From the NCBI GenBank assembly GCA_031459915.1, contig JAVKHO010000010.1, positions 32,001-96,000 of the forward strand: a DNA stretch of 64,000 bases. Reading direction: 5' to 3'. Within the stretch, counting starts at the first letter, position 1. Each line of letters opens with the position of its first letter. This document shows positions 14,690-52,760 of the stretch, piece after piece. This stretch comes from Candidatus Tepidifontimicrobium thermophilum (lineage in GTDB: Bacteria > Sysuimicrobiota > Sysuimicrobiia > Sysuimicrobiales > Sysuimicrobiaceae). Both the position numbers and the translations under genes were made by a program. The notes beneath the pieces were generated by a model. That model worked only from the letters and a program-made list of their open reading frames with translations. It was not told the origin of the DNA and did no database searches.

Positions 14690-14743
14690 GTCATCCGGCC
14701 CGCGCCGGATTGCCGGAGGACTAGGCCAGAGGTACGAAGGGAC

Positions 14744-14760
14744 TAGACTGACCGGTCAGT
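14744..14760. promoter_or_regulatory. Palindromic operator upstream of the hcr-like operon
   Basis: TAGACTGACCGGTCAG(T); contains the perfect 14-bp palindrome ACTGACCGGTCAGT; same motif family as sites at 24120, 41138, 41210, 41241, 49195. Confidence 0.65.
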
Positions 14761-14776
14761 TCAACGGGAGGGTGGG

Positions 14777-15256: not shown

Positions 15257-15258
15257 GG

Positions 15259-17667: not shown

Positions 17668-17678
17668 GGGGGAGCCGG

Positions 17679-24090: not shown

Positions 24091-24135
24091 TTGGACTTGC
24101 GCGTCTTAGAGGGTACGGTTTGACTGACCGGTCGG
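24091..24135 (+). promoter_or_regulatory. Putative bcr promoter (TTGGAC-17-TACGGT) immediately followed by operator TTGACTGACCGGTCGG
   Basis: -35 at 24091-24096, -10 at 24114-24119, operator 24120-24135 over the expected +1. Confidence 0.6.
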
Positions 24136-24151
24136 ATAAGAGGGTTACGCC

Positions 24152-25309: not shown

Positions 25310-25320
25310 GGGGGTGCGGT

Positions 25321-26619: not shown

Positions 26620-26621
26620 GC

Positions 26622-27461: not shown

Positions 27462-27463
27462 CC

Positions 27464-36999: not shown

Positions 37000-38586
37000 T
37001 TACGGGTGCGGCCACCGTCCCAGCCACCGCGCCCGGCGCAACAGCGGGGCCAGCCGGTACCGCTCCTCTCCATAGTAGTCCCGCAGGCCGTCCAGGACAC
37101 CCGCCACCGCCCGCACGCCGGCGCGCTCCGCCCAGGCAAACGGCCCGTAGGGGTGGTTCAGGCCCAACCGCATGCCCAGATCCACGTCCTGGGGGCTGGC
37201 CACGCCTTCACCTACTGCGAAGGCTGCCTCGTTGACCAGGGCGGCCAGAATTCTGGGGAACACCCCTCCCGGGGCGTCGCCCACGCGCAGCAGGGGAAGC
37301 CCCAGGGCCGCGAGGTAGGGGGTGGGATCGTTGCGGGCCCGCTCGTGGGCCGTCCACTCCAGCAGCTTCCGGTCCGCGAGCGGCGGCAGGGTGGCGTAGC
37401 CCGCCACCCGGTCCGGGTGCTGCACCCAGCCGGCGCACTCGCCCGCGGCGGCGTTGGTGCACGCCACCAGCAGCGCCGCGTCGTCGGGCAGGTGCCGGTC
37501 CAGGGCCGTCACCAGGGACCGCTTGCGGTCGCGGTCCTCCACCTCCGCCTCGAAGGCCGCGGCCACGTGAAGAGCTCGGTCGGGTGGGCCCGAGAGCTCT
37601 ACGACCTCGAACCCGCGCTCCCGAAGGCGTCCAGATAGCTCGCGGGCCAGGGCGGTGCTGCCGGCCACCGCGTACGGACCCGGGTGGGGCTGCGGGAGCG
37701 GCAGGGGCTGGGGCTCCGGGGCGGGCTTGGTGTAGTCGTAGAAGCCCCTTCCGGTTTTGCGGCCCAGCCTTCCCGACAGCACCATCTCCCGCTGCAGGGG
37801 GTGGGGACGGAAGCGGGACTCGCCCGCAAAGGCCTGGTGGAAGGACTGGGCCACCGCGTAGCCCACGTCGATCCCCACGAGATCCATGAGCTCGAAGGGC
37901 CCCATGCGGAACCCGCCGGCTTCCCGCGCGGCGCGGTCCACGGTGGCGCAGTCCGCCAGCCCCTCGCCCACCAGGCGCAGCCCCTCGCCGTAGAAGGGGC
38001 GGTTCACGCGGTTCACCACGAAGCCAGGGCTGTCCTTCGCCACGATGGCCGTCTTGCCCAGGGCGCGGGCGAAGGCCACCAGCCTCTCTACCACCTCCGG
38101 GGCGGTCTGCGGTGCCCGCACCACCTCCACCAGGGCCATCACGGGCGCAGGGTTGAAGAAGTGCAGCCCCGCCACCCGCTGGGGAAGTGCGGTCACCGCG
38201 GCCAGCTCGGCCACCGACAGAGAGGAGGTGTTGGTGGCGAGGATCGCGTGGGGCGCCACCGCCGCGAGCCGGGTGAACAGGTCCTTCTTCAAATTCAGGT
38301 CTTCCGGGGCGGCTTCCACCACCAGGTCGCAGCCCGTGAGGACCTCCAGGCTTTCCGCGGTCTGCAGCCGCTGGAGGGCCTGCGACCGCGCCTCGGGGTC
38401 CAGGCGGCCCCGCTGCACGAGGCGCTCGGTGTCCTGTTCGATCCGCTCCCGGGCTTTGGGCAGTACTTCTGGGAAGGCGTCGTACAGGACCACCGAAAAA
38501 CCGGAGGTGGCGCACACCTGGGCGATGCCGGCGCCCATGGTGCCCGCCCCACACACGCCCACCGTGCGGATGCCGTGTTCCCTCAA
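37000..38586 (-). CDS. paaH: 3-hydroxyacyl-CoA dehydrogenase (PaaH-like, long form)
   Basis: GAGTMGAGIA, ATNTSSL, HFFNPAP, GFVVNR, RMGPFELMDL; duplicated C-domain. Confidence 0.8.
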   Translation of the reverse strand: MREHGIRTVGVCGAGTMGAGIAQVCATSGFSVVLYDAFPEVLPKARERIEQDTERLVQRGRLDPEARSQALQRLQTAESLEVLTGCDLVVEAAPEDLNLKKDLFTRLAAVAPHAILATNTSSLSVAELAAVTALPQRVAGLHFFNPAPVMALVEVVRAPQTAPEVVERLVAFARALGKTAIVAKDSPGFVVNRVNRPFYGEGLRLVGEGLADCATVDRAAREAGGFRMGPFELMDLVGIDVGYAVAQSFHQAFAGESRFRPHPLQREMVLSGRLGRKTGRGFYDYTKPAPEPQPLPLPQPHPGPYAVAGSTALARELSGRLRERGFEVVELSGPPDRALHVAAAFEAEVEDRDRKRSLVTALDRHLPDDAALLVACTNAAAGECAGWVQHPDRVAGYATLPPLADRKLLEWTAHERARNDPTPYLAALGLPLLRVGDAPGGVFPRILAALVNEAAFAVGEGVASPQDVDLGMRLGLNHPYGPFAWAERAGVRAVAGVLDGLRDYYGEERYRLAPLLRRARWLGRWPHP

Positions 38587-38632: not shown

Positions 38633-39409
38633 CTACCGTCCGCGGAACGTGGGCTTCCGCTTCTCCAGAAAGGCCCGGACTCCCTCCTGCCGGTCCTCGG
38701 TGCCGAAGGCGAGCGCGGACAGCTTGCGCTCGTAGTCCAGCCCCACGTCCAGGGGGGTGTCCATGGACCGCAGCACCGCCTCCTTGGCCAGCCGCGCCGC
38801 CACGGGGGCTTTCTGCGCGATCTCCCGGGCCAGGGTCAGGGCGTCCTGCAGGTAGGTCTCCGCCGGGGCCACGCGGTTCACCACGCCCCAAGTGTACGCC
38901 TCCTGCGCGGTGAGCTGACGTCCCGTCAGGATCAGCTCCATGGCGCGGTGCTTGCCTATCAGGCGCGGCAGTCGTTGAGTCCCCCCGGCACCCGGGATGA
39001 TGCCCAGGTGGATCTCCGGCTGTCCGAAGCGCGCCGTCTCTGACGCCACCACCAGGTCGCACAGCATCGCTAGCTCCCACCCGCCGCCCAGGCAGTACCC
39101 GCTCACCGCGGCTACCAGGGGTTTGGGGAACCGGCGGATGCGGTCCCACGCGCCGGGCCGGTGGCCGGCGATCATGCTGACCGCGGACTGGCCCACGAAC
39201 TCCTGGATGTCCGCGCCCGCGGCGAAGGCCCGGTCGTCGCCGGTGAGCACTACCACCCGGCAGTCGGGGTCGGCCTCGAAAGCGTCCAGGGCCCTGGTGA
39301 GCTCGTCCAGCAAACGGGCGCTGAGGGCGTTCCGCACGTGCGGCCGGTTCAGGCGGACTAGGCCCACGTGCGGTTCAGGGGTTTCCACCAAGATGTCCTG
39401 GTAGGTCAT
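38633..39409 (-). CDS. paaF: Enoyl-CoA hydratase (2,3-dehydroadipyl-CoA hydratase PaaF-like)
   Basis: AFAAGADI, CLGGGWEL, QPEIHLGIIPGAGGTQRL. Confidence 0.75.
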   Translation of the reverse strand: MTYQDILVETPEPHVGLVRLNRPHVRNALSARLLDELTRALDAFEADPDCRVVVLTGDDRAFAAGADIQEFVGQSAVSMIAGHRPGAWDRIRRFPKPLVAAVSGYCLGGGWELAMLCDLVVASETARFGQPEIHLGIIPGAGGTQRLPRLIGKHRAMELILTGRQLTAQEAYTWGVVNRVAPAETYLQDALTLAREIAQKAPVAARLAKEAVLRSMDTPLDVGLDYERKLSALAFGTEDRQEGVRAFLEKRKPTFRGR

Positions 39410-39512
39410 AGCGCCCCTCCTGCGCTGGGATAGTCGGCGTGCCGTTGTTGCCGGGCGCTCCCTCGCGGGGCCCGTCACCTCGCGCGGGGCCGCGGGTGGA
39501 GGCCTGCCGGCG

Positions 39513-41117
39513 TCACGGGGCGCCCACCGGCTGGGCGCGCAGGGCTTCCCGCAGCCGGTACCGCTGCAGCTTGCCCGTGGTGGTCCTCGGCAGCTCCGTG
39601 GCGAAGTGCACCCACCGGGGGCACTTGTAGGAGGGCAGCTGCTGGCGCACGAAGTTCTTCAGTTCCTCCTCCAGGCCCGGGCCGGGCTGGTAGCCCTCCC
39701 GCAGGACCACGAAGGCCGCGGGCTTTTCCAGGCCCGCTTCGTCGAAAGCTCCCACCACCGCGGCCTCGCGCACCGCGGGGTGCTGCAGCAGGACCCCTTC
39801 CACCTCGAGGGGGGAGACCCACAGGCCCGAGGGCTTCAGCAGGTCGTCCGCACGCCCCACGTACCAGTAGAAGCCGTCCTCGTCCTGGTAGAAGAGGTCG
39901 CCGGTGTTGAACCACTCGCCCGCCAGGCACGCCTGCGTGCGGTGGTGGTCGTTCCAGTAGCCCGCGAAGATCCCGTCGTTCTTCACCCACAGGACGCCGA
40001 CCTCACCCGCCCTTACGGGCCGGCCCTCCTCGCCCACCAGCCGGGCTTCGAACCCCTCCAGGATCTTCCCGCTGGAGCCTGGGCGCAGGCAGTCGGGCCG
40101 GTTCGAGAGGTAGATGGCTCCGACCTCCGTGGATCCCACGCCGTCGAAGATCGCCAGCCCGAACCGCTCCCGCCACCGTTCGAACACCGCCCGGGGCAGC
40201 GCCTCGCCGGCGGAGATGCAGCAGCGCAGGAACGAGAGCCGTACCGACCGGCCCGTGCGGTGCAGGTAGTCCAGCAGAGCGGCGTAGAAGGTCGGCACGC
40301 TGTAGAAGACCGTGGGCCGGTGCTCCTCCAGGAGGTCCAGAACGGCGCCCGGCTCGGGGCGGTCCGGGGACAGGATCACCTGTGCGCCGTACAGGAACGG
40401 GCCGTCCAGGGAGTTGTTGCGGCCGTAGGAGAAGAACAGCTTGGAGGTGGAGAACACCTTGTCCTGCGGTCCCAGGCCCACCACCTGCTGGCAGTGAGGC
40501 GGGATGAAGTGCAGCAGGTCGTGGTGCAGGTGCACCACCGCCTTCGGCCGGCCCGTGGTCCCCGAGCTGTACATCCAGAAGGCCATGTCGTCGGGGCTGG
40601 TGGGTGCCGGCTCAGGCACCCGGGCCGGCGGTGCCAGAAGGTCCTCGTACGCGGCCGCCCCCTCCAGGCGGGGCGCGGGGAAGTGCCGGTCCAGGGGCTC
40701 GTCGGAATCGGGCTGCACCACCACCAGGTGGCGCAGCCACATCAGCCGGTCCGCGACCTCCCGGATGCGGGGCAGGACGGTGCCGTGGACCACCAGGACC
40801 TTGGCCCGGCTGTGGTTGAGGTAGTAGACGTAGTCGTCCGGCCGGGCGTACGTGTTCACCAGCACGGGTACTGCGCCCACCCGCAGGGTGCCGAAGTAGG
40901 TGGCGAGGAACGCGGGGCAGTCAGCTAGACACACCACGACCCGGTTCTCCGGCTCCACCCCAAGCCGGGTCAGGGCGGCGGCCACCGAGTGCGCCTGTCT
41001 TTGGAGATCCGCGTACGTGACCGCAGAATCACCGTAGTGTACCGCCACCCGGTCCCCGCGTCCCTCGTCCACGTGGCGGTCCAGCAGGTGGGTCGCCAGG
41101 TTGAAGCTTCCGTCCAC
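39513..41117 (-). CDS. Benzoate-CoA ligase family protein
   Basis: DDMAFWMYSSGTTGRPK, SKLFFSYG, SAGEALP, DGVGSTE, GLWVSP, TGKLQR; likely start GTG 41117 (upstream TTG lies in the operator). Confidence 0.88.
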   Translation of the reverse strand: MDGSFNLATHLLDRHVDEGRGDRVAVHYGDSAVTYADLQRQAHSVAAALTRLGVEPENRVVVCLADCPAFLATYFGTLRVGAVPVLVNTYARPDDYVYYLNHSRAKVLVVHGTVLPRIREVADRLMWLRHLVVVQPDSDEPLDRHFPAPRLEGAAAYEDLLAPPARVPEPAPTSPDDMAFWMYSSGTTGRPKAVVHLHHDLLHFIPPHCQQVVGLGPQDKVFSTSKLFFSYGRNNSLDGPFLYGAQVILSPDRPEPGAVLDLLEEHRPTVFYSVPTFYAALLDYLHRTGRSVRLSFLRCCISAGEALPRAVFERWRERFGLAIFDGVGSTEVGAIYLSNRPDCLRPGSSGKILEGFEARLVGEEGRPVRAGEVGVLWVKNDGIFAGYWNDHHRTQACLAGEWFNTGDLFYQDEDGFYWYVGRADDLLKPSGLWVSPLEVEGVLLQHPAVREAAVVGAFDEAGLEKPAAFVVLREGYQPGPGLEEELKNFVRQQLPSYKCPRWVHFATELPRTTTGKLQRYRLREALRAQPVGAP

Positions 41118-41137
41118 CGCCCCTATGGCACAGTCCG

Positions 41138-41256
41138 TTGACCGGCCAGTCAATGCGCCGGCTGCACCGCAAGATCTCCTGCAGGTGGCTCAGACGGCTT
41201 GCGCCTGTCTTGACCGGTCGGTTAATATGCTCTTGCGGGTTTGACCGACCGGTTAA
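41138..41256. promoter_or_regulatory. Three copies of 16-bp operator in the divergent ligase/epoxidase promoter region
   Basis: TTGACCGGCCAGTCAA (41138), TTGACCGGTCGGTTAA (41210), TTGACCGACCGGTTAA (41241); each is one mismatch from TTGACCG-NN-CGGTCAA. Confidence 0.8.
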
Positions 41257-41270: not shown

Positions 41271-42203
41271 ATGGCGGCAGCCACTGATTCGGCCCTGCTG
41301 CAGCGCATCCAGGAAGGCCGGCTGGTGGAGGGTCCCGAGCACGCCACGGAGCGCTACCTGGAGGGCCTCAAGCGTACCCTGGTGGTCTCCGCGGACACCG
41401 AGCTCATCAGCGCTCCCGCGTACCTGCGGGCCGCCCGGCATGCGCCCTCCCTGAACGCGTACGTGTCAGCCCTGGGGATCATCCAGGACGAGCTGGGCCA
41501 CGCCCACATCGCCTACCGCCTCCTGGAGGACCTGGGGGTGGATACCGAGGCCCTCGTGTACGAACGCGACCCCAAGGACTTCAAGTACCCCTACGCCTTC
41601 GACGTGCCCTTAGACACCTGGACGGAGCTGGTGGTGGCGAACGCTTTTTACGACCGCGCGGGCTTCGTGCTGCTGGGGGACATCTTCCGCCACACCAGCT
41701 ACGGGCCGTGGAAGCGGGCCCTGGTGAAGGTGGACCGGGAGGAGAACTTCCACCTGCGCCACGGGGAGCGGTGGATGGAGATCCTGGCCTCCGACCCGTC
41801 CACGAAGGCGGAGCTGCAGCGGGCGGTGGACTGGATGTTCGTCATGACGTTGGAGTGGTTCGGGTTGCCGGACCACCTGAAGCGGCACACGGAGCAGATC
41901 GAGTACGGCCTGAAGGGCTCCACCAACGACCAGCTCCGTCAGCAGTGGATGTCGACCGCGGTCCCCCTGTGTGAGCGGCTGGGTCTGAGAGTCCCCGCCC
42001 ACTACGACCCCGACCGCGGGGAGTACGTGATCGACTGCCCGTTCCCAGCGGAGTTCGACGAACAGTCCAAGCGGTGGCGCTTCGAGGACGGCCCGGTGTC
42101 CTGGGACGCGGTGCTGGCGCGCTGGCGGCGCCGCGGCCCGGCCAACGGGGAGTTCGTGGAGCAGCTACAGCGGGGCTGGCGCCAGCTGCGGGCTGTGGCG
42201 TAG
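41271..42203 (+). CDS. PaaA-like catalytic di-iron subunit of an aryl-CoA epoxidase
   Basis: Full ligand set ADTE...QDELGH...YD...EENFH; SYGPW; GGAGG RBS. Confidence 0.85.
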   Translation: MAAATDSALLQRIQEGRLVEGPEHATERYLEGLKRTLVVSADTELISAPAYLRAARHAPSLNAYVSALGIIQDELGHAHIAYRLLEDLGVDTEALVYERDPKDFKYPYAFDVPLDTWTELVVANAFYDRAGFVLLGDIFRHTSYGPWKRALVKVDREENFHLRHGERWMEILASDPSTKAELQRAVDWMFVMTLEWFGLPDHLKRHTEQIEYGLKGSTNDQLRQQWMSTAVPLCERLGLRVPAHYDPDRGEYVIDCPFPAEFDEQSKRWRFEDGPVSWDAVLARWRRRGPANGEFVEQLQRGWRQLRAVA

Positions 42204-42222
42204 AGCCCAGCGGGGGTGTGGG

Positions 42223-42528
42223 GTGCCCACGGCAGAGCAGGTCCGCCAGGTCCTCCGCAGCGTCCTGGACCCGGAGTACCCGGTGAGCGTGGTGGACCTG
42301 GGCCTCGTCCGCGGGGTGGAGGTGCAGGGCGGCGTGGTGCGGGTCCGCCTGACCTTCACGTCCCTGGGCTGCCCCTGCGTGGAGCTGATCCAGGAGGACG
42401 TTCGCCGCGCGGTGCTGCAGCTGGACGGGGTGGAGGACGTGGTGGTGGAGCAGGTGTTCGAGCCATGGTCCCGACAGCACATCTCCCCGGAGGGGCTGCG
42501 GCGGCTTCGGGAAGTGGGGGTGGTGTAG
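42223..42528 (+). CDS. DUF59/PaaD N-terminal metal-sulfur assembly domain protein
   Basis: VLDPEYPVSVVDLGLV, LTFTSLGCP. Confidence 0.85.
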   Translation: MPTAEQVRQVLRSVLDPEYPVSVVDLGLVRGVEVQGGVVRVRLTFTSLGCPCVELIQEDVRRAVLQLDGVEDVVVEQVFEPWSRQHISPEGLRRLREVGVV

Positions 42529-42725
42529 TGGCGGACGCACCCGTCGCGGTGTACGAGGTGTTCGCGCGCCACGGGAACGAGCCGGTCCGGCACGTGGGCA
42601 GCGTGCGGGCCACCAGCCCGCAGGAGGCCGGCGTGTTCGCGTACACCCTGTACGACGAGCGGGGCTGGTCGGAGCTGTTCGTGGTCAGGCGGGACCGCTT
42701 GGTGCGGGTGGTGGAGCCGCGGTGA
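42528..42725 (+). CDS. PaaB-like small subunit
   Basis: YEVFAR...RHVGSVRA...AYTLY; GTG overlaps the previous TAG. Confidence 0.75.
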   Translation: MADAPVAVYEVFARHGNEPVRHVGSVRATSPQEAGVFAYTLYDERGWSELFVVRRDRLVRVVEPR

Positions 42726-42937
42726 GCCGCTACTGGGTATTCGGCCGCAGGCGCTACGCGGATCCCCTGGAGCAGCAAGGGGTGTTGGAAGCGCCGGACG
42801 AGGACTCGGCCCGGCAGGAAGCCCACAGCCGGTTCCCCGGGGAGTGGGTGGAGCTGGTGCTGGTCCCCGAGAGCGAAGTGCACTGGGTGCTGGGCCCCAC
42901 AAGGGAGGCGCAGGGTGTCGCAGGACAGGTGGACTGA
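42722..42937 (+). CDS. Second, divergent PaaB-like small protein
   Basis: YWVFGRR...PLEQQGVLEAPDEDSA...WVELVLVP; same pattern as PaaB; GTGA coupling. Confidence 0.6.
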   Translation: MSRYWVFGRRRYADPLEQQGVLEAPDEDSARQEAHSRFPGEWVELVLVPESEVHWVLGPTREAQGVAGQVD

Positions 42938-43604
42938 GAGCGGGCCGGTGGCCGAAGCCCTGGGGACCTTTGTCGCCGCGGTGGCGGACGCCAAGTTCTT
43001 CCTCGGGCGGCGCGTGGCGGAGTGGTCCGTGGGCGCGCCGGAGCTCGAAAGCGCGGTGGCGTGCGCCGCGGTGGCGCAGGAGGAGTTAGGACACGCGCGC
43101 GTGCTGTACCCCCTGCTGGCAGACCTGCCGCTGCGGACTCCCCTGGCACCCCTGGAGCGGGAGGACGGTCGGGCGGTGGTGTTCTGTCCGGAGTTCCTCC
43201 GGCAGCCCTGGCGGAGCTGGCTGGAGGCGGTGGTGGGCCTGGCGCTGGTGGACACCGCCCTCACCGTGGCGCTGCAGGCCGCAACTTCCTCCGCGCACGA
43301 GGAGCTGGCCCGCAGGGCCTGCCGCATCGTGGAGGAGGAGCGCTTCCACACGGTGTTCGCGTGGGGTCGGGTCCGGGCGCTGGTCTCGCGGCTTCCCGCG
43401 GACGCCGGGGAGTCGTTGATCGCCACGCGGCTCGCTCAGGTGCTGCGGTGGCTTTCGGACGCCACCGCGGGGCTGGGAGTGCTGCGGGCGGCAGGCGTGG
43501 TGGACGCGACAGGTGACGCGGTGCGGGAACGGTACCTCACGCAGGTCCGCGCGCAGCTGGAGGGGTTGGAGGTCCAAATTCCCGAGCCGGTGGCGGCGGG
43601 TTAG
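42915..43604 (+). CDS. PaaC-like structural ferritin-like subunit
   Basis: LGRRVAEW..GAPELE, AQEELGHAR, EEERFH; first Fe ligand replaced (ADAK). Confidence 0.8.
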   Translation: MSQDRWTESGPVAEALGTFVAAVADAKFFLGRRVAEWSVGAPELESAVACAAVAQEELGHARVLYPLLADLPLRTPLAPLEREDGRAVVFCPEFLRQPWRSWLEAVVGLALVDTALTVALQAATSSAHEELARRACRIVEEERFHTVFAWGRVRALVSRLPADAGESLIATRLAQVLRWLSDATAGLGVLRAAGVVDATGDAVRERYLTQVRAQLEGLEVQIPEPVAAG

Positions 43605-43620
43605 GCGCACGGGGCGCGGC

Positions 43621-43815
43621 GTGGCGCAGCGGACGGACCAGCCGGCTTCGCCTGGGTCAGACGAAAGGCCCGGGGATCTGGGCGGGCAGGTCCGCTGCCC
43701 GTGGTGCGGCTCGGAGGAGGTGGAGCGGTTGGCGGAGTTCGGGCCCCAGCTGCTGACCCACGCGTACCGGTGCCGCCGGTGCCGCAGCCCGTTCGAGGTG
43801 ATCCGTCGGTCCTAG
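43621..43815 (+). CDS. Stand-alone PaaD C-terminal zinc-ribbon protein
   Basis: VRCPWCGS...FGP...YRCRRCRSPFE. Confidence 0.75.
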   Translation: MAQRTDQPASPGSDERPGDLGGQVRCPWCGSEEVERLAEFGPQLLTHAYRCRRCRSPFEVIRRS

Positions 43816-43842
43816 ACGCGAAGGTCCGCAGGAGGTGCTGCC

Positions 43843-45294
43843 ATGGGCAGGATGCTGGTGGCCGGGGAGTGGGTAGACAGCCAGTCCAGGGCCGAGATGC
43901 CAGTCACCAACCCCGCCACGGAAGAGGTGGTGGACACCGTCCCGCAGGCGACGCGGGAGGACGTGGATCGCGCGGTGGCCGCGGCCAAGGCGGCGTTTGC
44001 GGACTGGTCACGCACCGACCCCGAACAGCGCGCACATCTCCTCCGCAAAGGCGCAGAGCGCGTGCGGGCCTGTCAGGAAGAGGTGGCCGACCTGCTGACC
44101 CGCGAGCAGGGCAAGCCCACCCACGAGGCCCTGGCGGAGCTCAACCACCTGCTGCACGGTCTGGAGTACTACGCGGATCTCGCCAGCAAGCTGCGGGGTA
44201 GCTACGTACCGCTCCCGTCGCACCTGGGCAGCTCCTTCGGGCTGGTGGTCCGCCGCCCCCTGGGGGTGGTGGCGGCCATCGTGCCGTGGAACTACCCCCT
44301 CACCCTCATGGGCACCAAGATCGGGCCTGCCCTCATCGCGGGCAACACCGTGGTGGTCAAGCCTGCCAGCACCACGCCTCTCGCGGCCACCCGGGTGGTG
44401 GGCCTGCTTCAGGAGGCGGGCCTGCCTCCGGGCGTGCTGAATGTGGTCACGGGTCCCGGTCGGGTGGTCGGCGAGTACCTGGTGGCGCACCCCGACGTGG
44501 TCCGGGTGGCGTTTACCGGGGAGACGGCCACCGGCCGGCGCGTTATGGAGATCGCGGGCCCGGCCTTCAAGAGGGTCACCCTCGAGCTGGGCGGCTCGGA
44601 CCCGGTCATCGTGTGCTCGGACGCGGACCTGGACGCCGCGGTCCGGGGGGTGCTGGTGGGTCGGTACTGGAACTGCGGTCAGAGCTGTCTTGCGGCCAAG
44701 CGGGTGTACGTGTTCGAGGACGTGTACGACGCGTTCCTGGACAAGCTGCTGGAAGGGGTGAGCCGGTACGAGCCCGGGGAGGGCTGGGTGAAAGCGCAGC
44801 GGCCCAAGATCCGCCTCGGTCCGCTGCACACGGCCCGGCAGCGGGCGGAGGTCCTGGAGCAGATGCAGGACGCGCTGGCCCGAGGCGCGCGGGCGGTGGC
44901 GGGAGGCCGGATCCCGCAGGGCCGGGAGCGCGGCCACTTCCTGGAGCCCACGGTGCTGGTGGACGTGCCCCACGACTCCCGCGTGGTGCAGGAGGAGGTG
45001 TTCGGACCGGTGCTGCCGGTTTTCCGCGTCCGGGACATCGACGAGGCCATCCGGCTGGCCAACGACTCCCCGTACGGCCTGGGTTCCTCCATCTGGACCT
45101 TCAACGTGCGGTGGATCCACAAGGCCATCCACGAGCTGCAGGCGGGGATGACGTGGGTGAACCAGGTGCACTACGGCTACGACGAGCTTCCCTTCGGCGG
45201 GACCAAGCAGAGCGGGTTCGGAAAGGAACACGGGGTGGAGGCGGTGGACTACTACGTGGAGCTCAAGTCCGTGGTGGTGGGCGGCCTGCAGTAG
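43843..45294 (+). CDS. Aldehyde dehydrogenase (paralog 1)
   Basis: PWNYP, LELGG, NCGQSC, EEVFGP, PFGGTKQSG. Confidence 0.92.
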   Translation: MGRMLVAGEWVDSQSRAEMPVTNPATEEVVDTVPQATREDVDRAVAAAKAAFADWSRTDPEQRAHLLRKGAERVRACQEEVADLLTREQGKPTHEALAELNHLLHGLEYYADLASKLRGSYVPLPSHLGSSFGLVVRRPLGVVAAIVPWNYPLTLMGTKIGPALIAGNTVVVKPASTTPLAATRVVGLLQEAGLPPGVLNVVTGPGRVVGEYLVAHPDVVRVAFTGETATGRRVMEIAGPAFKRVTLELGGSDPVIVCSDADLDAAVRGVLVGRYWNCGQSCLAAKRVYVFEDVYDAFLDKLLEGVSRYEPGEGWVKAQRPKIRLGPLHTARQRAEVLEQMQDALARGARAVAGGRIPQGRERGHFLEPTVLVDVPHDSRVVQEEVFGPVLPVFRVRDIDEAIRLANDSPYGLGSSIWTFNVRWIHKAIHELQAGMTWVNQVHYGYDELPFGGTKQSGFGKEHGVEAVDYYVELKSVVVGGLQ

Positions 45295-45323
45295 CCGCGA
45301 CCCCGACCCTGAGGAGGGAGGCC

Positions 45324-46097
45324 ATGGCGGTGGAGTTCTCGCGGGAGGGCGGCCTGGGCTACGTCACCCTGAACCGGCCGCCCGCCAACAGCTACGACTT
45401 CGCGTTCATCGAGGAGCTGGACCGGGCAATCCAGCAGGCGGAGGCGGACCCGGAGGTCCGGGTGGTGGTGGTCCGCAGCGCCCTGGAGCGGTTCTTCTCC
45501 GCGGGCGCGGACGTGCGGGCCTTCTCGGAAAACCCGCCCGACCGCAACATGGAGCTGGTGCGCTACGCCCACCGGGTCCTGGGGCGCATCGCGCAGGTCC
45601 CCAAGGTGTTCATCGCGCAGATCGGCGGCCACGCCCTGGGCGGGGGGCTGGAGATCGCCCTGGCGTGCGACCTGCGGTTCGGCGCCCGGGGCGACTACCG
45701 GGTCGGGCTGCCGGAGGTGACTTTGGGCCTGCTGCCGGGCAACGGCGGCACGCAGCGGCTCCCGCGGCTTGTGGGCTGGAGCCGGGCTCTGGACCTGATG
45801 GTGACCGGCCGGACCCTGACCGCCGAGGAGGCTCACGCGTACGGGATCCTGGACCGGCTGGTCCCCGCAGAACGCCTGGCGGAGGAGACGGCTGAGTACG
45901 CCCGGAAGCTGGCCTCCGGGGCCGTGCGGGCCGTGGGCGCCATCAAGCTGGCGGTGCGGCTGGGAGTGGACCGGCCGCTGGAGGACGGACTGCGGCTGGA
46001 GCGGGAGCTGGTGGACGGGCTGTTCCGCAGCGAGGATGCCCAGGAGGGGATCCGGGCGTTTCTGGAAAAGCGCGCCCCGCTTTTCCGGGGTTTGTGA
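45324..46097 (+). CDS. Enoyl-CoA hydratase/crotonase (candidate epoxide/oxepin-processing hydrolase)
   Basis: FFSAGADV, ALGGGLEIALACD, LPEVTLGLLPGNGGTQRL. Confidence 0.88.
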   Translation: MAVEFSREGGLGYVTLNRPPANSYDFAFIEELDRAIQQAEADPEVRVVVVRSALERFFSAGADVRAFSENPPDRNMELVRYAHRVLGRIAQVPKVFIAQIGGHALGGGLEIALACDLRFGARGDYRVGLPEVTLGLLPGNGGTQRLPRLVGWSRALDLMVTGRTLTAEEAHAYGILDRLVPAERLAEETAEYARKLASGAVRAVGAIKLAVRLGVDRPLEDGLRLERELVDGLFRSEDAQEGIRAFLEKRAPLFRGL

Positions 46098-46110
46098 GGG
46101 GAGGACGGCC

Positions 46111-47550
46111 GTGGCGGAGATGTTCGTCGGCGGTGAGTTCATCCGCACCGGACGGGAGCGGTTTCCCGTGGTCAACCCCGCCACGGAAGAGGTGCTGGAC
46201 ACCGTCCCGCTGGCAGGCCCCGAGGAGGTGGACCTGGCGGTCCGCAGCGCCCACCAGGCCTTCCAGAGCTGGTCCGCTGTGCCCGCGGCACGCCGGGGTG
46301 ACCTGCTGCTCCGGGCTGCCCACCACGTGCACGACCACCTGGAGGAGCTGGCCCGTACCCTCACCCTGGAGCAGGGCAAGCCGCTGCGGGAGGCCCGGCT
46401 GGAGATCCGCCGGTTCGTGGAGACCCTGGTGCACTACGCGGGGCTGGGCCGCAACCTGAGGGGCGGGTACGTCCCGAATTTGGACGAGGGAGCGTACGGG
46501 TTGGTGCTCAAGCGCCCCCTGGGGGTGGTGGCGGCCATCGTCCCGTGGAACTTCCCCACCACCCTGCTGGGCAACAAGCTCGGGCCGGCGCTGGTGGCGG
46601 GCAACACGGTGGTCGCCAAGCCCGCGGAGACCACGCCGCTTGCCACCCTGCGGATCGCGCAGCTGCTGCACGAGGCGGGCCTGCCTGCGGGCGTGTTCAA
46701 CGTGGTGACCGGCACCGGCCCGGAGGCGGGTGAGGCCCTGGTCCGCCACCCCCTGGTACGGAAGGTGGCGTTTACCGGCTCCACCCAGGTGGGCAAGCGC
46801 ATCATGGCCCTGGCGGCGGAGGGGGTCAAGCGGGTGACCCTGGAGCTGGGCGGGTCCGACCCCATGATCGTGTGCGACGACGCGGACCTGGACGAGGCGG
46901 CCAGCGCGGCCAGCGTGGGCCGGTTCTTCAACTGCGGGCAGGCGTGCGTGGCCGTGAAGCGCCTGTTTGTCTTCGAGTCCGTGGCCGAACCGTTCGTGGA
47001 GAAACTGCTGGGGAAGGTGCGGCGGCTGCGGGTGGGCCCTGGCCTGGAAGACGGCGTGCACATGGGGCCCCTGCACACCCAGCGTCAGAGGGAGCGCATC
47101 GAGGAACAGGTGCAGGACGCCCTGGACCGGGGCGCCCGGTTGCTCGTAGGCGGCCGGAGGCCGGAGGACCCGCGGCTGCAGAAGGGCTTCTTCTACGAGC
47201 CCACCGTCCTCCTGGACCCCGACCCCCAGTCCCGGGTGGCCCAGGAGGAGGTGTTCGGACCCGTGCTGCCCGTCTGGCGCGTGGCCGACCTGGAGGAAGC
47301 CATCCAGCGCGCCAACAGCTCCCCCTACGGCCTGGGTTCGTCCATCTGGACCCGCAGCCTGGAGCGGGCGTCCGTGGCCGCGGAGCGGCTGGAGGCCGGC
47401 TACACCTGGGTGAACTCCGTCAACCGGATCTACGACGAGCTGCCCTTCGGCGGGACCAAACAGAGCGGCTTCGGGAAGGAACACGGGCTGGAAGCGCTAG
47501 ACTATTACATGGAAACCAAGTCCGTGGTGGTACGGGCGCTCGGGGGGTAA
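46111..47550 (+). CDS. Aldehyde dehydrogenase (paralog 2)
   Basis: PWNFP, FTGST, LELGG, NCGQAC, EEVFGP. Confidence 0.92.
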   Translation: MAEMFVGGEFIRTGRERFPVVNPATEEVLDTVPLAGPEEVDLAVRSAHQAFQSWSAVPAARRGDLLLRAAHHVHDHLEELARTLTLEQGKPLREARLEIRRFVETLVHYAGLGRNLRGGYVPNLDEGAYGLVLKRPLGVVAAIVPWNFPTTLLGNKLGPALVAGNTVVAKPAETTPLATLRIAQLLHEAGLPAGVFNVVTGTGPEAGEALVRHPLVRKVAFTGSTQVGKRIMALAAEGVKRVTLELGGSDPMIVCDDADLDEAASAASVGRFFNCGQACVAVKRLFVFESVAEPFVEKLLGKVRRLRVGPGLEDGVHMGPLHTQRQRERIEEQVQDALDRGARLLVGGRRPEDPRLQKGFFYEPTVLLDPDPQSRVAQEEVFGPVLPVWRVADLEEAIQRANSSPYGLGSSIWTRSLERASVAAERLEAGYTWVNSVNRIYDELPFGGTKQSGFGKEHGLEALDYYMETKSVVVRALGG

Positions 47551-47555
47551 CCGGG

Positions 47556-49127
47556 TTGACGACGGCCGCGGAAGTCCCGGAACGGTATAACGCCAGCACC
47601 CTGCTGGACCGCAACCTCGAACGGGGGCTCGCTCATAAGGTCTGCATCCGCTGGCAGGACGAAGAGATCACCTACGGGGAGCTTTACCGCCGGGTGTGCG
47701 GCTTCGCCAGGGCCCTGCGCAGCCTGGGCGTGCGGCGGGAGGAGCGGGTGCTGTTGGTGCTGGACGACAGCCCGGCCTTCCCCGTGGCGTTTTTGGGGGC
47801 CATCCGCGCCGGCGCCGTCCCCATCCCCACCAACCCCATGCTGCGGGCGGACGACTACGCGTACTTCCTGCAGGACAGCGCCGCCCGGGTGGTGGTCGCT
47901 GACCCGGCGCTGCTGCCGGTAGCGCACGAGGCCGCCTCCGGCCTAGCCGAGGCCCCTCAGGTAGTCGTGTCCCGTGGGAGCGCGGAGGGGGTGCTTAGCC
48001 TGGAGGAGCTGGTGGCAGCCCACGCGGGGGAGTTCCCGCCTGCCGACACCCACCGGGACGACATGGCCTTCTGGCTCTACAGCTCCGGCTCCACGGGCCG
48101 GCCCAAGGGGGTCGTGCACCTGCAGCACGACATCCTGTACACCTGCGAGACTTACGCCCGCCACGTCCTGCGCATCACCCAGGACGACGTCACCTTCTCC
48201 GCTTCCAAGCTGTTCCACGCGTACGGCCTGGGCAACAACCTGAGCTTCCCGTACTGGGCCGGGGCGTCCACGGTGCTGCGGTCCGGCCGCCCGACTCCGG
48301 AGGGGGTGTTGGAGACGATCCAGCGGTACCGGCCCACCCTGTTCTTCGCGGTGCCCACCCTTTACAACGCCATCCTCAACTACCCCGGAAGCGACCGGTA
48401 CGACCTCTCCAGCGTACGGCTGTGCGTGTCCGCGGCGGAGGCGCTGCCCGCGGAGATCTTCCACCGGTGGAAGGACCGGTTCGGCCTGGTGATCCTGGAC
48501 GGGGTGGGCAGCACCGAGATGCTGCACATCTACTGCTCCAACACCCCGGACTCGATCCGGCCGGGCTCGTCCGGCAGACCCGTGCCCGGGTACGAGCTGA
48601 AGATCCTCTCTCCGGACACCGGCCAGCCGGTGCCGCCCGGAGAGGTGGGGGACCTGTACGTGAAGGGCGACAGCGAGCTGGCTCTGTACTGGCACCAGCA
48701 CGAGAAGACCAAGCGCAGCCTGCACGGGGGCTGGTTCTACACCGGGGACCGCTACCGGGTGGACGAGGACGGGTTCTACTGGTACGAGGGCCGCAGCGAC
48801 GACATGATCAAGGTCGGGGGGCTGTGGGTGTCGCCCGTGGAGATCGAGAACACCCTCATCGAGCACCCCGCGGTGCAGGAGGCCGCGGTGGTGGGCGTTC
48901 CCGTGGAAGGGCTCACCCGCATCCGTGCCTTCGTGGTCCTCAAAGCAGGCCAGGCCCCCTCCGACGCCCTGGCGCAGGCGCTCCAGGAGTGGTGCAAGGA
49001 CCGGCTGGCGCGGTACAAGTACCCGCACTACGTCACGTTCACCGACGACCTCCCCAAGACCGTGACGGGTAAGATCCAGCGGTTCAGGCTGCGGGAAGCA
49101 GGGGCTCCGGCTCCCGCGGGGAGCTAA
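47556..49127 (+). CDS. Benzoate-CoA ligase family protein
   Basis: DDMAFWLYSSGSTGRPKGVVHLQHD, KLFHAYGLGN, DGVGSTEMLHI, TGKIQRF. Confidence 0.9.
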   Translation: MTTAAEVPERYNASTLLDRNLERGLAHKVCIRWQDEEITYGELYRRVCGFARALRSLGVRREERVLLVLDDSPAFPVAFLGAIRAGAVPIPTNPMLRADDYAYFLQDSAARVVVADPALLPVAHEAASGLAEAPQVVVSRGSAEGVLSLEELVAAHAGEFPPADTHRDDMAFWLYSSGSTGRPKGVVHLQHDILYTCETYARHVLRITQDDVTFSASKLFHAYGLGNNLSFPYWAGASTVLRSGRPTPEGVLETIQRYRPTLFFAVPTLYNAILNYPGSDRYDLSSVRLCVSAAEALPAEIFHRWKDRFGLVILDGVGSTEMLHIYCSNTPDSIRPGSSGRPVPGYELKILSPDTGQPVPPGEVGDLYVKGDSELALYWHQHEKTKRSLHGGWFYTGDRYRVDEDGFYWYEGRSDDMIKVGGLWVSPVEIENTLIEHPAVQEAAVVGVPVEGLTRIRAFVVLKAGQAPSDALAQALQEWCKDRLARYKYPHYVTFTDDLPKTVTGKIQRFRLREAGAPAPAGS

Positions 49128-49194: not shown

Positions 49195-49212
49195 TTGACC
49201 GCGTGGTAAGGT
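49195..49212 (+). promoter_or_regulatory. Degenerate operator copy overlapping a TGG-TAAGGT extended -10 of the ABC operon
   Basis: TTGACCGCGTGGTAAG, 3 mismatches to consensus. Confidence 0.45.
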
Positions 49213-49253
49213 ACGGGCCAGTGTTCGCGAAGAAGCAAAGGAGGTGGTGGGAC

Positions 49254-50450
49254 GTGCGGGGTCGACGGGTGGTAGCGGTCTGCGCGGTGGTGCTGGCGGT
49301 GGGGCTGGTGGCGAGCCTCGGGGGCGCGCAACAGAGGCCCCTGAAAGTGGCGTTCCTCAGTTCCCTGAGCGGGCCGTTTGCCTTCTGGGGAGTGAACGCC
49401 CGGGACGGGATGCGGATGGCGGTGGCGGAGCTGAACGAGGCGGGCGGGGTCCTGGGCCGGCCCGTGGAGTTCGTGGAGCGGGACGACCGCAACAACCCCG
49501 CGGAGGCCATCAGCGCCTTCCGGTTCCTGGTGGAGCGGGAGGGGATCAGCGCCGCGGGCGCGGTGATCAGCAGCGACGTGGCGCTCGCGGCCTCCCGGGA
49601 GGCGGAGACCCTGCGGGTGCCCCTGTTCCTGACCATGGCCGGCTCCCACGCCATCCTGCGCAAGACCAGCCGGTTCACCTTCCGGACGTGTCTGGTGGCC
49701 GCGCCCATGTACGTGCAGGCCATCGCGGCCATGGTCCAGCACGCTAAGTACGCCCGGGTGGGGAACCTCATCGCGGACTACGCGTGGGGCCACTCCATCC
49801 GGGAGGCCGTGGAGCGGTACGTGGCGGGACTGCCGGGCGTGCGGGTGCAGACGGAGGTGGCGCCGGTGACCGCCGCGGACTTCACCCCGTACCTGCGGCG
49901 GCTGCAGGCCTTCGACCCCCAGCTGCTGGTGATCGCGGGCCACCCGCCCGGCAACCCGGTCATCGTCCGGCAGGCCGCAGAGCTGGGCATGCGCCAGCAG
50001 CTCATCGGCTCCGTGCTGCCGCCCGAGCTCATGGTGCAGCGGGGCGGGGAAGCGGTGTTCAGCCGGTTTTTGGACTACTCCTGCGTGGACTTCACCACCC
50101 CGGCCTTCCGGCAGCTGGCCGCCAAGTACTACAGCCTGTACAAGCGGTACTTCGACAACAGCGCGTTTTCCGGTTACGTGATCGTGAAGATGGTGGCGGA
50201 CGCGGCGAAGAAAGCGGGCAGCACGGACCCGCGGGCCGTCGCGGACGTGATCCGCAAGGGCCGGTTCGTGCAGCCGGGCTACGCTTTCCCTCACTCGTAC
50301 ACCGAGTGGGGCGAACTGAAGGAGGCGCGGATCGTGTTCTTCACCATCGAGCGGGGCGAGGTCCCGGGCGGGGTGTGCCCGGGCTGCGGCTGGGCGCAGA
50401 AGTACCAGTTCCGCAGCACCCTCCTGCAGCCGTATGTCCCGGCCGAGTGA
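49254..50450 (+). CDS. Liv-type ABC substrate-binding protein
   Basis: Signal peptide, SLSGPFAFWG, NEAGGVLGRPVE, DYAWG; GGAGG RBS. Confidence 0.88.
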   Translation: MRGRRVVAVCAVVLAVGLVASLGGAQQRPLKVAFLSSLSGPFAFWGVNARDGMRMAVAELNEAGGVLGRPVEFVERDDRNNPAEAISAFRFLVEREGISAAGAVISSDVALAASREAETLRVPLFLTMAGSHAILRKTSRFTFRTCLVAAPMYVQAIAAMVQHAKYARVGNLIADYAWGHSIREAVERYVAGLPGVRVQTEVAPVTAADFTPYLRRLQAFDPQLLVIAGHPPGNPVIVRQAAELGMRQQLIGSVLPPELMVQRGGEAVFSRFLDYSCVDFTTPAFRQLAAKYYSLYKRYFDNSAFSGYVIVKMVADAAKKAGSTDPRAVADVIRKGRFVQPGYAFPHSYTEWGELKEARIVFFTIERGEVPGGVCPGCGWAQKYQFRSTLLQPYVPAE

Positions 50451-51198
50451 GCCTGTCCTCCGGTGCCGCGGCATCACCAAGCGGTTCGGGGGGGTGGTGG
50501 CTCTCCGGGACGTGACGCTGGAGGTGGAGCCGAAAGCCCTGGTGGGGCTGATTGGCCCCAACGGGGCAGGCAAGAGCACCCTGCTGAACGTGGTGTGCGG
50601 CTTGACCCGTCCGGACTCCGGGACCGTGGAGCTGGACGGCCGGCCCGTCACGGGTCTGCCGGCCCACGCGGTGGCCCGGCGCGGGGTGGGCCGCGTGCTG
50701 CAGATCCCTCGTCTATTCCCCAGCCTGACGGTGGAGGAGACCGTGCGGGTGGGTGCGCTGTTCGGCTCCCCTGACTCCCCCGGGCCTGCGCAGACCGCCC
50801 GGCGGGTCGACGAAGCCCTGGAGCTGGTGGAGCTCAGGGACCGCAGGACCGAGCCCGTGGGCCGGCTCAACACGCAGGAAAAGCGCCTGGTGGACCTGGC
50901 GCGGGCGCTGGCGGGCCAGCCCAAGCTCCTCCTGGTGGACGAGCTGATGAGCGGGCTCAACCCCGTGGAGATCCAGCGCTGCACGGCCCTGCTGCGCCGG
51001 GTGCGGGAGGAGCGGGGTGCGGCCATCCTGTGGGTGGAGCACGTTATGGACGCGGTGCTGGGCACGGTGGAACGGGTGGTGGTGCTGGACCACGGGGCGG
51101 TGATCGCCCAGGGCCCGCCCGCGCAGGTGGCGAAGGACCCCGCGGTGGTGGAGGCTTACCTGGGAGTAGACTTCCACGCGGCGGAGGTGGCGGGCTAG
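50434..51198 (+). CDS. ABC ATPase (LivG-like)
   Basis: GPNGAGKST, LLVDE, VEHVMD, EAYLG. Confidence 0.9.
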   Translation: MSRPSEPVLRCRGITKRFGGVVALRDVTLEVEPKALVGLIGPNGAGKSTLLNVVCGLTRPDSGTVELDGRPVTGLPAHAVARRGVGRVLQIPRLFPSLTVEETVRVGALFGSPDSPGPAQTARRVDEALELVELRDRRTEPVGRLNTQEKRLVDLARALAGQPKLLLVDELMSGLNPVEIQRCTALLRRVREERGAAILWVEHVMDAVLGTVERVVVLDHGAVIAQGPPAQVAKDPAVVEAYLGVDFHAAEVAG

Positions 51199-51201
51199 CC
51201 C

Positions 51202-51903
51202 ATGCTGGAAGTCCAGGACCTGTGGGCGGGCTACGACGACGTGGCGGTGGTGCGCGGGGTCAGCCTGCGGGTGGCCGACGGGGAGGCCATCGCGGTGCTG
51301 GGCCCCAACGGCGCGGGCAAGACTACCCTGTTCCGCTCCCTGGTGGGCCTGGTGCGGCCCCAGAAGGGCTCCGTGCGTTTCGAGGGTCGGCCCCTACACG
51401 GCCTCCGGCCCCACGAGGTGGTCCGCCAGGGCGTGGCGTACGTGGCCGCGGAGCGGGAGCTGTTCCCCCAGCTGACCGTGCTGGAGAACCTGGAGCTGGG
51501 CGCGTACGCGCGCCCGGAGGGCGCGCGTCAGCGTCTCGAGATGGTGTTCGACCTGTTCCCCCGGCTTGCGGAGCGCAAGGGACAGCGCGCGGGGACCCTG
51601 TCCGGAGGCGAGCAGCAGATGCTGGCCATCGCGCGGGCGCTGATGGCGCAGCCGAAGCTGCTGCTGCTGGACGAGCCGTCCACCGGGCTGGCACCGAGGC
51701 TGGTGGCGGAGCTGTACCGGAGGCTCGAGACCCTCCGGCGGCAGGGGGTCACCATCCTGCTGGCCGAGCAGCAGGTGGGCGCGGCCCTGGGGCTGTGCTC
51801 CCGCGTGTACGTGCTGAAGGACGGGGGCGTGGCGTTTGAAGGGGAGGCCGCGGACCTGCGGGGCAGCGCGCAGCTGCGTGTGGCGTACCTCGGGGGGACG
51901 TAG
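51202..51903 (+). CDS. ABC ATPase (LivF-like)
   Basis: GPNGAGKTT, LSGGEQQMLAIARALM, DEPS. Confidence 0.92.
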   Translation: MLEVQDLWAGYDDVAVVRGVSLRVADGEAIAVLGPNGAGKTTLFRSLVGLVRPQKGSVRFEGRPLHGLRPHEVVRQGVAYVAAERELFPQLTVLENLELGAYARPEGARQRLEMVFDLFPRLAERKGQRAGTLSGGEQQMLAIARALMAQPKLLLLDEPSTGLAPRLVAELYRRLETLRRQGVTILLAEQQVGAALGLCSRVYVLKDGGVAFEGEAADLRGSAQLRVAYLGGT

Positions 51904-51905
51904 CG

Positions 51906-52760
51906 GTGGGCGTGGTCCTGGACGGGCTGGTGCTGGGGCTGCAGCTGGCGCTGCTGTCGGTGGGGGTCGTGTTCGTGTACGGCCTGGGCGGCGTGCTGAA
52001 CCTGGCCCACGGGCAGGTGGCGGTGGCCGGAGGCCTGGTGGCAGCCCTGCTCCTGCAGGCGAGGGTGAACCCGGTATTGAGCGGGCTCGGAGGCGTGGTG
52101 GCTGCGGGTGTGGTGGCCCTCCTCCTGGACCGCACCCTGCTGCAGCCCGCGTACCGCCGCAGGGGCGAGGAGCGGCTGCTGCTGGCCCTCATCCTGACCC
52201 TGGGCACGTCCTTTGCCCTGGACGGTTTCTTCACCTTCCGCTACCCGAACGTGGCCCTGAGCCTGCGGCTACCTGCGCCGTCGGTGGAGGTGGGCGGGAT
52301 CACCGTGCGTACCGCCAGCCTCGTGGTGGGAGCCCTGTCCCTAGCGACCTTCGGGCTGCTGCTGGTGTTCCTGAAGGGCACCCGGTTAGGCAAGGCCATC
52401 CGCTGCATCATCCAGAACGAGGCCGGGGCGTGGCTGTGCGGCGTGGACGTGGATCGGGCGCGGACCGTTACCCTGTTCCTGAGCGGCGTGCTGGCAGGGG
52501 TCGCGGCGCTGGGACAGGGGTTCTTCTCGTACCTGGGACCCGACATGGGGCCGGAGTTCACCATCCTGGCCCTGATCGTGGCGGTGGTGGGAGGCGTGCG
52601 TAGCCTCACCGGCACGTTCCTGGCGAGCCTGCTTTTGGGGATGGTGAACGCCGCGCTGAGCTACTGGGTCGGCACCTACCTCACCTGGATCGCCCTCCTG
52701 GCGGTGGCGGTGGCCACTCTGCTGGTGCGTCCGGAGGGCCTGCTGGCGTACTGGCCATGA
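51906..52760 (+). CDS. ABC permease (LivH-like)
   Basis: VLNLAHG, TRLGKAIR, VVGGVRS, VRPEGL. Confidence 0.88.
   Translation: MGVVLDGLVLGLQLALLSVGVVFVYGLGGVLNLAHGQVAVAGGLVAALLLQARVNPVLSGLGGVVAAGVVALLLDRTLLQPAYRRRGEERLLLALILTLGTSFALDGFFTFRYPNVALSLRLPAPSVEVGGITVRTASLVVGALSLATFGLLLVFLKGTRLGKAIRCIIQNEAGAWLCGVDVDRARTVTLFLSGVLAGVAALGQGFFSYLGPDMGPEFTILALIVAVVGGVRSLTGTFLASLLLGMVNAALSYWVGTYLTWIALLAVAVATLLVRPEGLLAYWP

Follow-up and report, generated by a model that had tools for sequence, protein, structure and literature searches.

A Paa-like di-iron oxygenase operon with Box-type partner genes as a probable benzoyl-CoA epoxidase

We examined ten genes at positions 41271–49127 of a 64,000-nucleotide stretch of contig JAVKHO010000010.1 (the window, to which all feature positions refer), taken from a genome that is 96% complete. 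The first of these genes resemble subunits of the phenylacetyl-coenzyme A (CoA) epoxidase, Paa, and the last is a benzoate-CoA ligase, which raises the question of whether the encoded oxygenase acts on phenylacetyl-CoA, on benzoyl-CoA as in the Box pathway, or on another aryl-CoA. We favour, as the probable answer from the sequence evidence, a benzoyl-CoA epoxidase that joins a Paa architecture to Box chemistry, and the operon likely encodes a set of enzymes, not described before, that breaks down benzoate with oxygen. This reading was drawn from a catalytic subunit lying outside PaaA, its BoxB-like alignment columns, a crotonase akin to BoxC, benzoate-type ligases, the lack of linked paaK, paaG, paaZ and paaE, the co-occurrence of the clade with canonical PaaA, and a palindrome shared with benzoyl-CoA-centred operons.

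All ten genes are on the forward strand, open, intact and tightly spaced (Table 1), in the order catalytic subunit (A), DUF59 protein (D1), two short proteins (B1 and B2), partner subunit (C), zinc ribbon, aldehyde dehydrogenase (ALD1), crotonase (ECH), second aldehyde dehydrogenase (ALD2) and ligase (BCL1). The original prediction, made from this DNA alone, had listed a PaaA-like subunit with di-iron ligands, a PaaC-like subunit, a split PaaD and an aldehyde dehydrogenase–crotonase–aldehyde dehydrogenase–ligase run, and all were present in that order according to open reading frames and Pfam; the divergent second benzoate-CoA ligase (BCL2) and the lack of paaK, paaG, paaZ, paaJ and paaE orthologues in the window were also confirmed, and neither boxA nor boxB was found in the whole genome. 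The two PaaB-like proteins stood only in part: both reading frames are real, but both score below the PF06243 cut-off, so that the PaaB label of B2 is weak. B2 was present in 55 of the 68 complete cores described below (counted by hand), in one subclade only, and was not found in Bacilli or haloarchaeal loci. C retained five ligand-like residues, while its first ligand position was Lys27 (Lys in 54 of 61), so that C is probably structural.

The catalytic subunit belongs to the PaaA/PaaC family and is neither a canonical PaaA nor BoxB. A PF05138 profile match above the cut-off, the di-iron ligands and the PaaA fold place it in that family. Our search scored 8000 candidates and gave 4420 relatives of A, a count that takes in canonical PaaA, and 169 sequences of the A clade were aligned. 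The ligands E44, E74, H77, D128, E158 and H161 were invariant in all 169 and correspond to E42, E72, H75, D126, E155 and H158 of PaaA; the six PaaA ligands and the lysine bridge (K68 with E49) were taken from PMC4498308. A has I70 and Y51 at the two bridge positions and thus lacks the bridge, and Lys68 was K in 21 of 21 canonical PaaA rows and I or V in 169 of 169 A-clade sequences. A shared 29% identity with E. coli PaaA and reached 118 bits on TIGR02156, below the 280-bit cut-off for canonical PaaA. Its predicted model (predicted local distance difference test, pLDDT, 96) had a template modelling score of 0.86 to PaaA and 0.60 to BoxB. Phylogeny of the catalytic subunit, proposed as a check with the original prediction, placed A outside canonical PaaA: in a quick tree of 87 rows, for which the only support values are from the Shimodaira–Hasegawa-like approximate likelihood ratio test (SH-aLRT), 16 canonical PaaA rows fell on one side at 98, and A with its near relatives was supported at 94.

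The system thus has the PaaA fold, the six ligands and PaaC-, PaaB- and PaaD-like partners in common with E. coli PaaABC(D)E (PDB 3PVR, 4IIT), and F110, R35, K105, K215 and N219 of A stand at conserved PaaA positions. It differs in the low identity, the separate clade, the missing bridge, the order A-D-B-B-C-ribbon, a benzoate-type ligase in place of PaaK, and loci without PaaG, PaaZ and PaaE. We compared the columns that were conserved at 80% or more within A, within PaaA (19 rows) and within BoxB (6 rows, a small set from a single phylum): A agreed with BoxB alone in 7, with PaaA alone in 8, and PaaA with BoxB in 1, while 19 were common to all and 16 differed in all. Four of the seven columns shared with BoxB (T43, S47, R129 and G131) flank ligands E44 and D128, and we take them to be the lining of the BoxB benzoyl pocket. 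BoxB-type residues beside two iron ligands and entry through a benzoate-CoA ligase are features shared with the Box pathway of Azoarcus evansii and Burkholderia xenovorans. The kinship between A and BoxB is distant (HHalign E 9e-8), and BoxB differs as a single chain of 470–480 residues with no structural subunit, according to PMC4498308, whereas A is multi-subunit. The BoxB profile TIGR03225 had no match in the genome of A and none in 41 genomes (positive control, 32 of 151 Acidobacteriota).

The crotonase is the strongest independent pointer to Box chemistry. A careful tree had 50 rows, comprising 21 cluster crotonases, 4 BoxC N-domains and 25 other crotonases (the wrong-frame L222 and 8 long or redundant rows were left out, 17 were then thinned, and 8 crotonases of the same genome were added); the cluster crotonases and the BoxC N-domains formed one side against the 25 others with support 99/94. 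A BoxC N-domain profile ranked 21 ECH-clade members above every other crotonase (54 scored), and one BoxC reference was verified by TIGR03222. The N-domain of BoxC alone is catalytic, with two glutamates, according to PMC4498308; ECH has both (E110 and E131), and PaaG-type rows of the alignment do not. ECH thus resembles BoxC in clade, in the glutamate pair and in its adjoining aldehyde dehydrogenase, and differs in length, with one domain of 257 residues against two domains of about 550 (TIGR03222). We infer that ECH is related by descent to the catalytic domain of BoxC and is likely the ring-opening hydrolase. An FCxxxNET motif was common to BoxC and to cluster members of Bacilli, Acidobacteriota and Ktedonobacteria. 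The best PDB match of ECH, 2PPY, is a structural genomics enoyl-CoA hydratase deposited under that generic name, and a crotonase from a Bacilli-type cluster matches it at 482 bits; it presumably comes from G. kaustophilus, and a full-text search found no paper on it. Separately, the core is followed in many loci (e.g. L021:12640-13400, L029:13386-13937; PaaY-like in 29 of 80) by a second crotonase without the glutamate pair and by a gamma-carbonic-anhydrase protein of the PaaY type, neither of which is in the window.

ALD1 was directly 5' of ECH in all 42 loci with both genes, and ALD2 was directly 5' of the ligase in 14 of the 19 with both, which points to one pair for ring opening and another for entry. 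On this basis ALD1 is likely the BoxD equivalent and ALD2 possibly an aryl-aldehyde dehydrogenase. The original prediction had the crotonase and the aldehyde dehydrogenases replacing BoxC and BoxD; the kinship to the BoxC catalytic domain upholds the first part, and of the two dehydrogenases probably only one stands in for BoxD. Other differences from the Box pathway are the lack of BoxA in the operon and dehydrogenases that score as generic BADH/SSADH-like enzymes.

Both ligases were above the 375-bit cut-off of the benzoate-CoA ligase family TIGR02262. A222, H324 and I325 of BCL1 match A227, H333 and I334 of the benzoate ligase 4EAT, which we take to be substrate-pocket residues. The BCL2 pocket is altered (S242, R245, G345 and A346), and this enzyme possibly serves a substituted benzoate. 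We scanned 16 of 60 neighbouring ligases, and 14 passed TIGR02262, including two of the haloarchaeal type. In a same-genus genome (L005:8306-9760), BCL2 and the PaaF-like gene were in pieces and the oxygenase operon was intact.

We next consider the spread of the cluster, for which the neighbourhood set was the best 80 of 307 genome loci around A, from Actinomycetota, Chloroflexota, Acidobacteriota, Armatimonadota, Bacillota and others. D1, B1, C and the ribbon were all present in 68 of the 80, and the other 12 were mostly short contigs. Among the 48 loci of at least 14 kb, ECH was found in 37, ALD1 in 37, ALD2 in 22 and the ligase in 20, with frameshifted loci undercounted. None of the 80 loci had paaK, paaG, paaZ, paaE, boxB or boxC. 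The proposed conservation of the gene string across phyla was borne out, since it recurs with benzoate-CoA-ligase-family enzymes in this set. Not all proposed marks of a new system held: two PaaBs, a split PaaD and the lack of PaaE were rejected as diagnostic, since the second PaaB is restricted to one subclade and canonical Paa models of haloarchaea also include a split PaaD. In Bacillota and haloarchaea, Paa complexes are as a rule partial, as stated in PMC13186573.

Canonical PaaA together with a second copy was found in 9 of 40 relatives. Eight second copies were fetched; all belonged to the A clade (61–75% identity to A), all were beside ECH, and seven were also beside a ligase. Two further genomes had both canonical PaaA and an A-clade copy. 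PaaA and BoxB do not cross-react, according to PMC4498308, so that a second enzyme for benzoyl-CoA beside canonical PaaA makes sense. The cluster was also found on Thermus thermophilus plasmids, some copies being labelled paaA_2, and on haloarchaeal plasmids at about 54%; A-clade members occur in Geobacillus kaustophilus, G. thermodenitrificans, Parageobacillus, Aeribacillus and Halalkalibacter krulwichiae. The tallies of 40 relatives, of 41 genomes and of 151 Acidobacteriota include genomes flagged as unpublished (G023; G819, G941). Mutual exclusion with BoxB was considered and not counted: 32 BoxB-like and 11 A-clade genomes among the 151 Acidobacteriota did not overlap, where about 2 overlaps would be expected (hand-calculated P about 0.07), but the genome at the centre of the set had been chosen for A, and kin are non-independent. 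In Thermoleophilia, BoxB was found in 0 and A in 2 of 201 genomes, which is uninformative on exclusion. A more distant sister clade at 36–38% identity to A, on plasmids of Agrobacterium and haloarchaea, adjoins other ligases and a thioesterase (L084:11944-15163, L086:12001-14548, L215), and likely acts on another substrate.

A 16-bp palindrome occurs in three copies in the divergent promoter between BCL2 and A, and in a relaxed form at 14744 and 24120, before a 4-hydroxybenzoyl-CoA-reductase-like and a benzoyl-CoA-reductase-like operon. It was 5' of 62 of 89 A genes at least 68% identical, a circular count because the pattern was derived from them, and of 1 of 76 more distant ones. It was not found before the paaK-like or paaF/G/J-like genes, nor before any of 21 canonical paaA genes. 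By position, the palindrome appears to tie the oxygenase operon to the two benzoyl-CoA-centred operons, and its copies are likely repressor sites. A TetR regulator at 30540–31142, of a family present in 24 of 81 loci, is a candidate palindrome binder.

In the proposed route, BCL1 would form benzoyl-CoA, with ALD2 possibly making benzoate from benzaldehyde. C and the B subunits would hold A, which would then use O2 and two electrons to give 2,3-epoxybenzoyl-CoA, which ECH would hydrolyse to 3,4-dehydroadipyl-CoA semialdehyde and formate, and ALD1 would oxidise the semialdehyde. Formate release is a feature of Box biochemistry. The PaaF- and PaaH-like genes of the divergent operon are likely the lower pathway, and their products, with a thiolase encoded on another contig, would yield succinyl-CoA and acetyl-CoA. 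As a single case that fits formate release, formate dehydrogenase genes adjoin the Haloterrigena turkmenica cluster (L083:24245-28903).

The PaaA fold and Paa-type subunits would also fit a phenylacetyl-CoA epoxidase of this genome, partnered by genes on other contigs. A is the sole PaaA-family enzyme of the genome, and other contigs hold two paaK-like genes, a paaI-like gene and a paaF-paaG-paaJ-like run (paaK-like 51%, paaG-like 42%, paaJ-like 60%). We consider this very unlikely, since the paaK-, paaG- and paaJ-like genes lack the palindrome and those tested were below cut-off, the genome has no full paaZ, linked paaK, paaG and paaZ were absent throughout the 80 loci, and the A clade coexists with canonical PaaA. 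Moreover, in five close relatives without a PF05138 gene, paaG/J-like genes were present in all five and a strong paaK-like match in three, so that these genes do not depend on A. The possibility raised with the original prediction, that paaK and paaG lie elsewhere and are co-regulated, was therefore seen in its first part only. A similarly slim chance is left to hydroxylation of the aryl-CoA, through an arene oxide to a phenol that enters a gentisate-type dioxygenase route. Rearrangement of arene oxides to phenols is possible in general chemistry, but no gentisate dioxygenase was found in the genome of A, only weak matches occurred in 2 of 41 genomes, and the partner genes conserved with A encode a crotonase related to BoxC and an aldehyde dehydrogenase. 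Functions other than those discussed here have the least probability of all.

Unlikely, yet clearly ahead of these, is that epoxidation and ring opening proceed in the same way but mainly on a substituted benzoyl-CoA (hydroxy, amino or methyl), or on a main substrate that depends on the subclade. The altered BCL2 pocket, the UbiD decarboxylases and 4-hydroxybenzoyl-CoA-reductase-like genes of the window, two cluster copies in some genomes (G045; Geobacillus genomosp. 3) and the differing BoxC-like motif among ECH subclades speak for it, but BCL1, the conserved ligase, has the 4EAT pocket residues, and the residues of A flanking the pocket are nearly invariant in the 169 sequences. Besides the lone PaaA-family enzyme and the paaK-, paaG- and paaJ-like genes, several observations weigh against benzoyl-CoA as the substrate of a Box-type route. 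TIGR02262 also spans hydroxy- and aminobenzoate ligases, and an anthranilate ligase scores close. The core stood alone in six Acidobacteriota loci (Pyrinomonas and five others); in five such genomes that were searched, an unlinked ECH-clade gene was placed in the tree for four, and a TIGR02262 ligase was present in three and missing in two. The BoxC branch was long (2.35) with a limited outgroup, ECH of the window lacks the FCxxxNET motif, and ALD1 is only 24% identical to the PaaZ aldehyde dehydrogenase domain (24–26% for the dehydrogenases). The palindrome gave 9 genome-wide matches against 8 in a reversed-genome control, so that only its positions are informative, and both reductase-like operons are below their NCBIfam cut-offs. 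Finally, no PaaE or BoxA was found in the genome, and no reductase travels with the cluster.

Electron supply is the weakest step of the benzoyl-CoA epoxidase proposal. No single reductase family was conserved, with YumC-type reductases in 5 loci, a 2Fe-2S ferredoxin in 7 haloarchaeal-type loci and HcaD-type reductases in 8. Another contig of the genome encodes a 53% match to the YumC-type reductase of a Bacilli cluster, and the probable electron source is a general ferredoxin with a ferredoxin-NADP reductase, both encoded elsewhere. A BoxA candidate (TIGR03224, 26.6 bits) was rejected as it sits in a hydrogenase-like operon. In Solirubrobacterales loci (L030:7723-9710), a ferredoxin reductase of the HcaD type lies upstream of the core together with an R2-like ligand-binding oxidase.

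Full-text literature searches, with most subscription journals outside their scope, found no description of this system. Named members of the A clade are mostly labelled PaaA or 'phenylacetic acid catabolic protein', and PaaA with PaaC has been proposed as a robust marker of phenylacetate catabolism (PMC13186573). If the benzoyl-CoA reading is true, the phenylacetate labels on the A clade are wrong, an aerobic route for benzoate has gone unrecognised in many microbes of soils, hot springs and salt lakes, and the cluster offers a natural intermediate between Paa and Box enzymes together with a small thermostable ring-opening hydrolase.

A 2001 paper by Zaar et al. (JBC 276:24997) is reported to describe a new pathway for aerobic benzoate breakdown in Azoarcus evansii and Bacillus stearothermophilus, in which benzoyl-CoA is reportedly converted to dehydroadipyl-CoA products with O2 and NADPH. 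The A clade is carried by Geobacillus species and, by way of these relatives of Bacillus (Geobacillus) stearothermophilus, may explain that Box-type activity; if so, the cluster supplies candidate genes for the Gram-positive activity of 2001. B. krulwichiae is reported to be a benzoate user, and the genome paper on G. thermodenitrificans NG80-2 reportedly predicted a Geobacillus cluster for benzoate via benzoyl-CoA, so that an earlier annotation-level claim may exist. We see an even chance for a wider proposal: that the system represents a third lineage of aryl-CoA epoxidases and provides Bacilli, Thermus, Rubrobacteria, Chloroflexota and haloarchaea with their main pathway for aerobic benzoate use; that it retains the ancestral state of both known systems, with a BoxB-type pocket in a Paa-type multi-subunit enzyme and a single-domain crotonase lineage that gave rise to the two-domain BoxC; that it holds the missing genes of the 2001 activity; and that in this genome one repressor is shared with an oxygen-free benzoyl-CoA reductase route.

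Table 1. Genes and sites of the oxygenase operon and its surroundings in the window.
Feature	Position	Strand	Evidence
A, catalytic di-iron subunit, PaaA fold, separate clade	41271..42203	+	PF05138 E 1.5e-60; TIGR02156 118 bits
D1, DUF59/iron-sulfur-assembly half of split PaaD	42223..42528	+	PF01883 E 5.9e-21; 34% to PaaD residues 10-109
B1, short PaaB-like subunit	42528..42725	+	PF06243 E 1.4e-5, below cut-off; in 73/80 loci
B2, second, weaker PaaB-like protein	42722..42937	+	PF06243 E 0.039, below cut-off
C, PaaC-like partner	42915..43604	+	PF05138 E 3.5e-23; groups with PaaC at 99
Four-cysteine ribbon, C-terminal half of split PaaD	43621..43815	+	PF23451 E 2.3e-15; 38% to PaaD residues 119-163
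ALD1, aldehyde dehydrogenase	43843..45294	+	PF00171; catalytic motifs intact
ECH, single-domain crotonase, 257 residues, BoxC N-domain clade	45324..46097	+	trees; E110, E131; closest solved structure 2PPY
ALD2, second aldehyde dehydrogenase, 57% to ALD1	46111..47550	+	usually directly 5' of ligase
BCL1, benzoate-CoA ligase family	47556..49127	+	TIGR02262 624 bits; best PDB matches 2V7B, 4EAT
BCL2, divergent ligase, altered pocket	39513..41153	-	TIGR02262 542 bits; in 2/80 loci only
PaaF-like hydratase	38633..39412	-	48% to E. coli PaaF; NF007239 313 of 371 bits
PaaH-like 3-hydroxyacyl-CoA dehydrogenase	37000..38586	-	39% to E. coli PaaH; NF006124 above cut-off
Branched-chain-type ATP-binding cassette (ABC) transporter	49203..53776	+	PF13458; open reading frames
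16-bp palindrome, three copies, divergent promoter between BCL2 and A	41138..41256 (copies at 41138, 41210, 41241)	.	
Palindrome before benzoyl-CoA-reductase-like operon (starts 24152)	24120..24139	.	kept in 8/12 loci fetched, all 8 same family
Palindrome before 4-hydroxybenzoyl-CoA-reductase-like operon (starts 14777)	14744..14763	.	

The stranded RNA run X6, of which about 5% was read, placed 660 reads on the window, 268 of them at 99% identity or more. Its first mates fell on the reverse strand over 41.7–54 kb and on the forward strand over 34.5–41 kb, which fits divergent transcription, at low depth, with many reads from related strains and no silent stretch for comparison. A second run, X4, gave 12 reads only.

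The ABC transporter downstream of the operon likely serves uptake. It is followed at 53754–55471 by a two-subunit CoA-transferase, homologues of which adjoin the oxygenase in Bacilli, haloarchaea and some relatives, and which could be a second way to the aryl-CoA. A four-gene benzoyl-CoA-reductase-like set (C, B and two activases, below the Bcr cut-offs) at 24152–28267 adjoins BadH-like (29213) and dienoyl-CoA-hydratase-like genes; close homologues were found in 17 of 41 genomes, three of them without the oxygenase. Its presence hints that the ring may also be reduced without oxygen, alongside the aerobic route. Positions 4282–18680 hold UbiX with three or more UbiD decarboxylases, a CoA transferase of the CaiB type and a 4-hydroxybenzoyl-CoA-reductase-like trio that scores 829 of 995 bits, likely a funnel from phenols or substituted benzoates to benzoyl-CoA. 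Finally, beyond the window, at about 98250–100200 of the contig, two open reading frames resembled LAGLIDADG homing endonucleases by eye.

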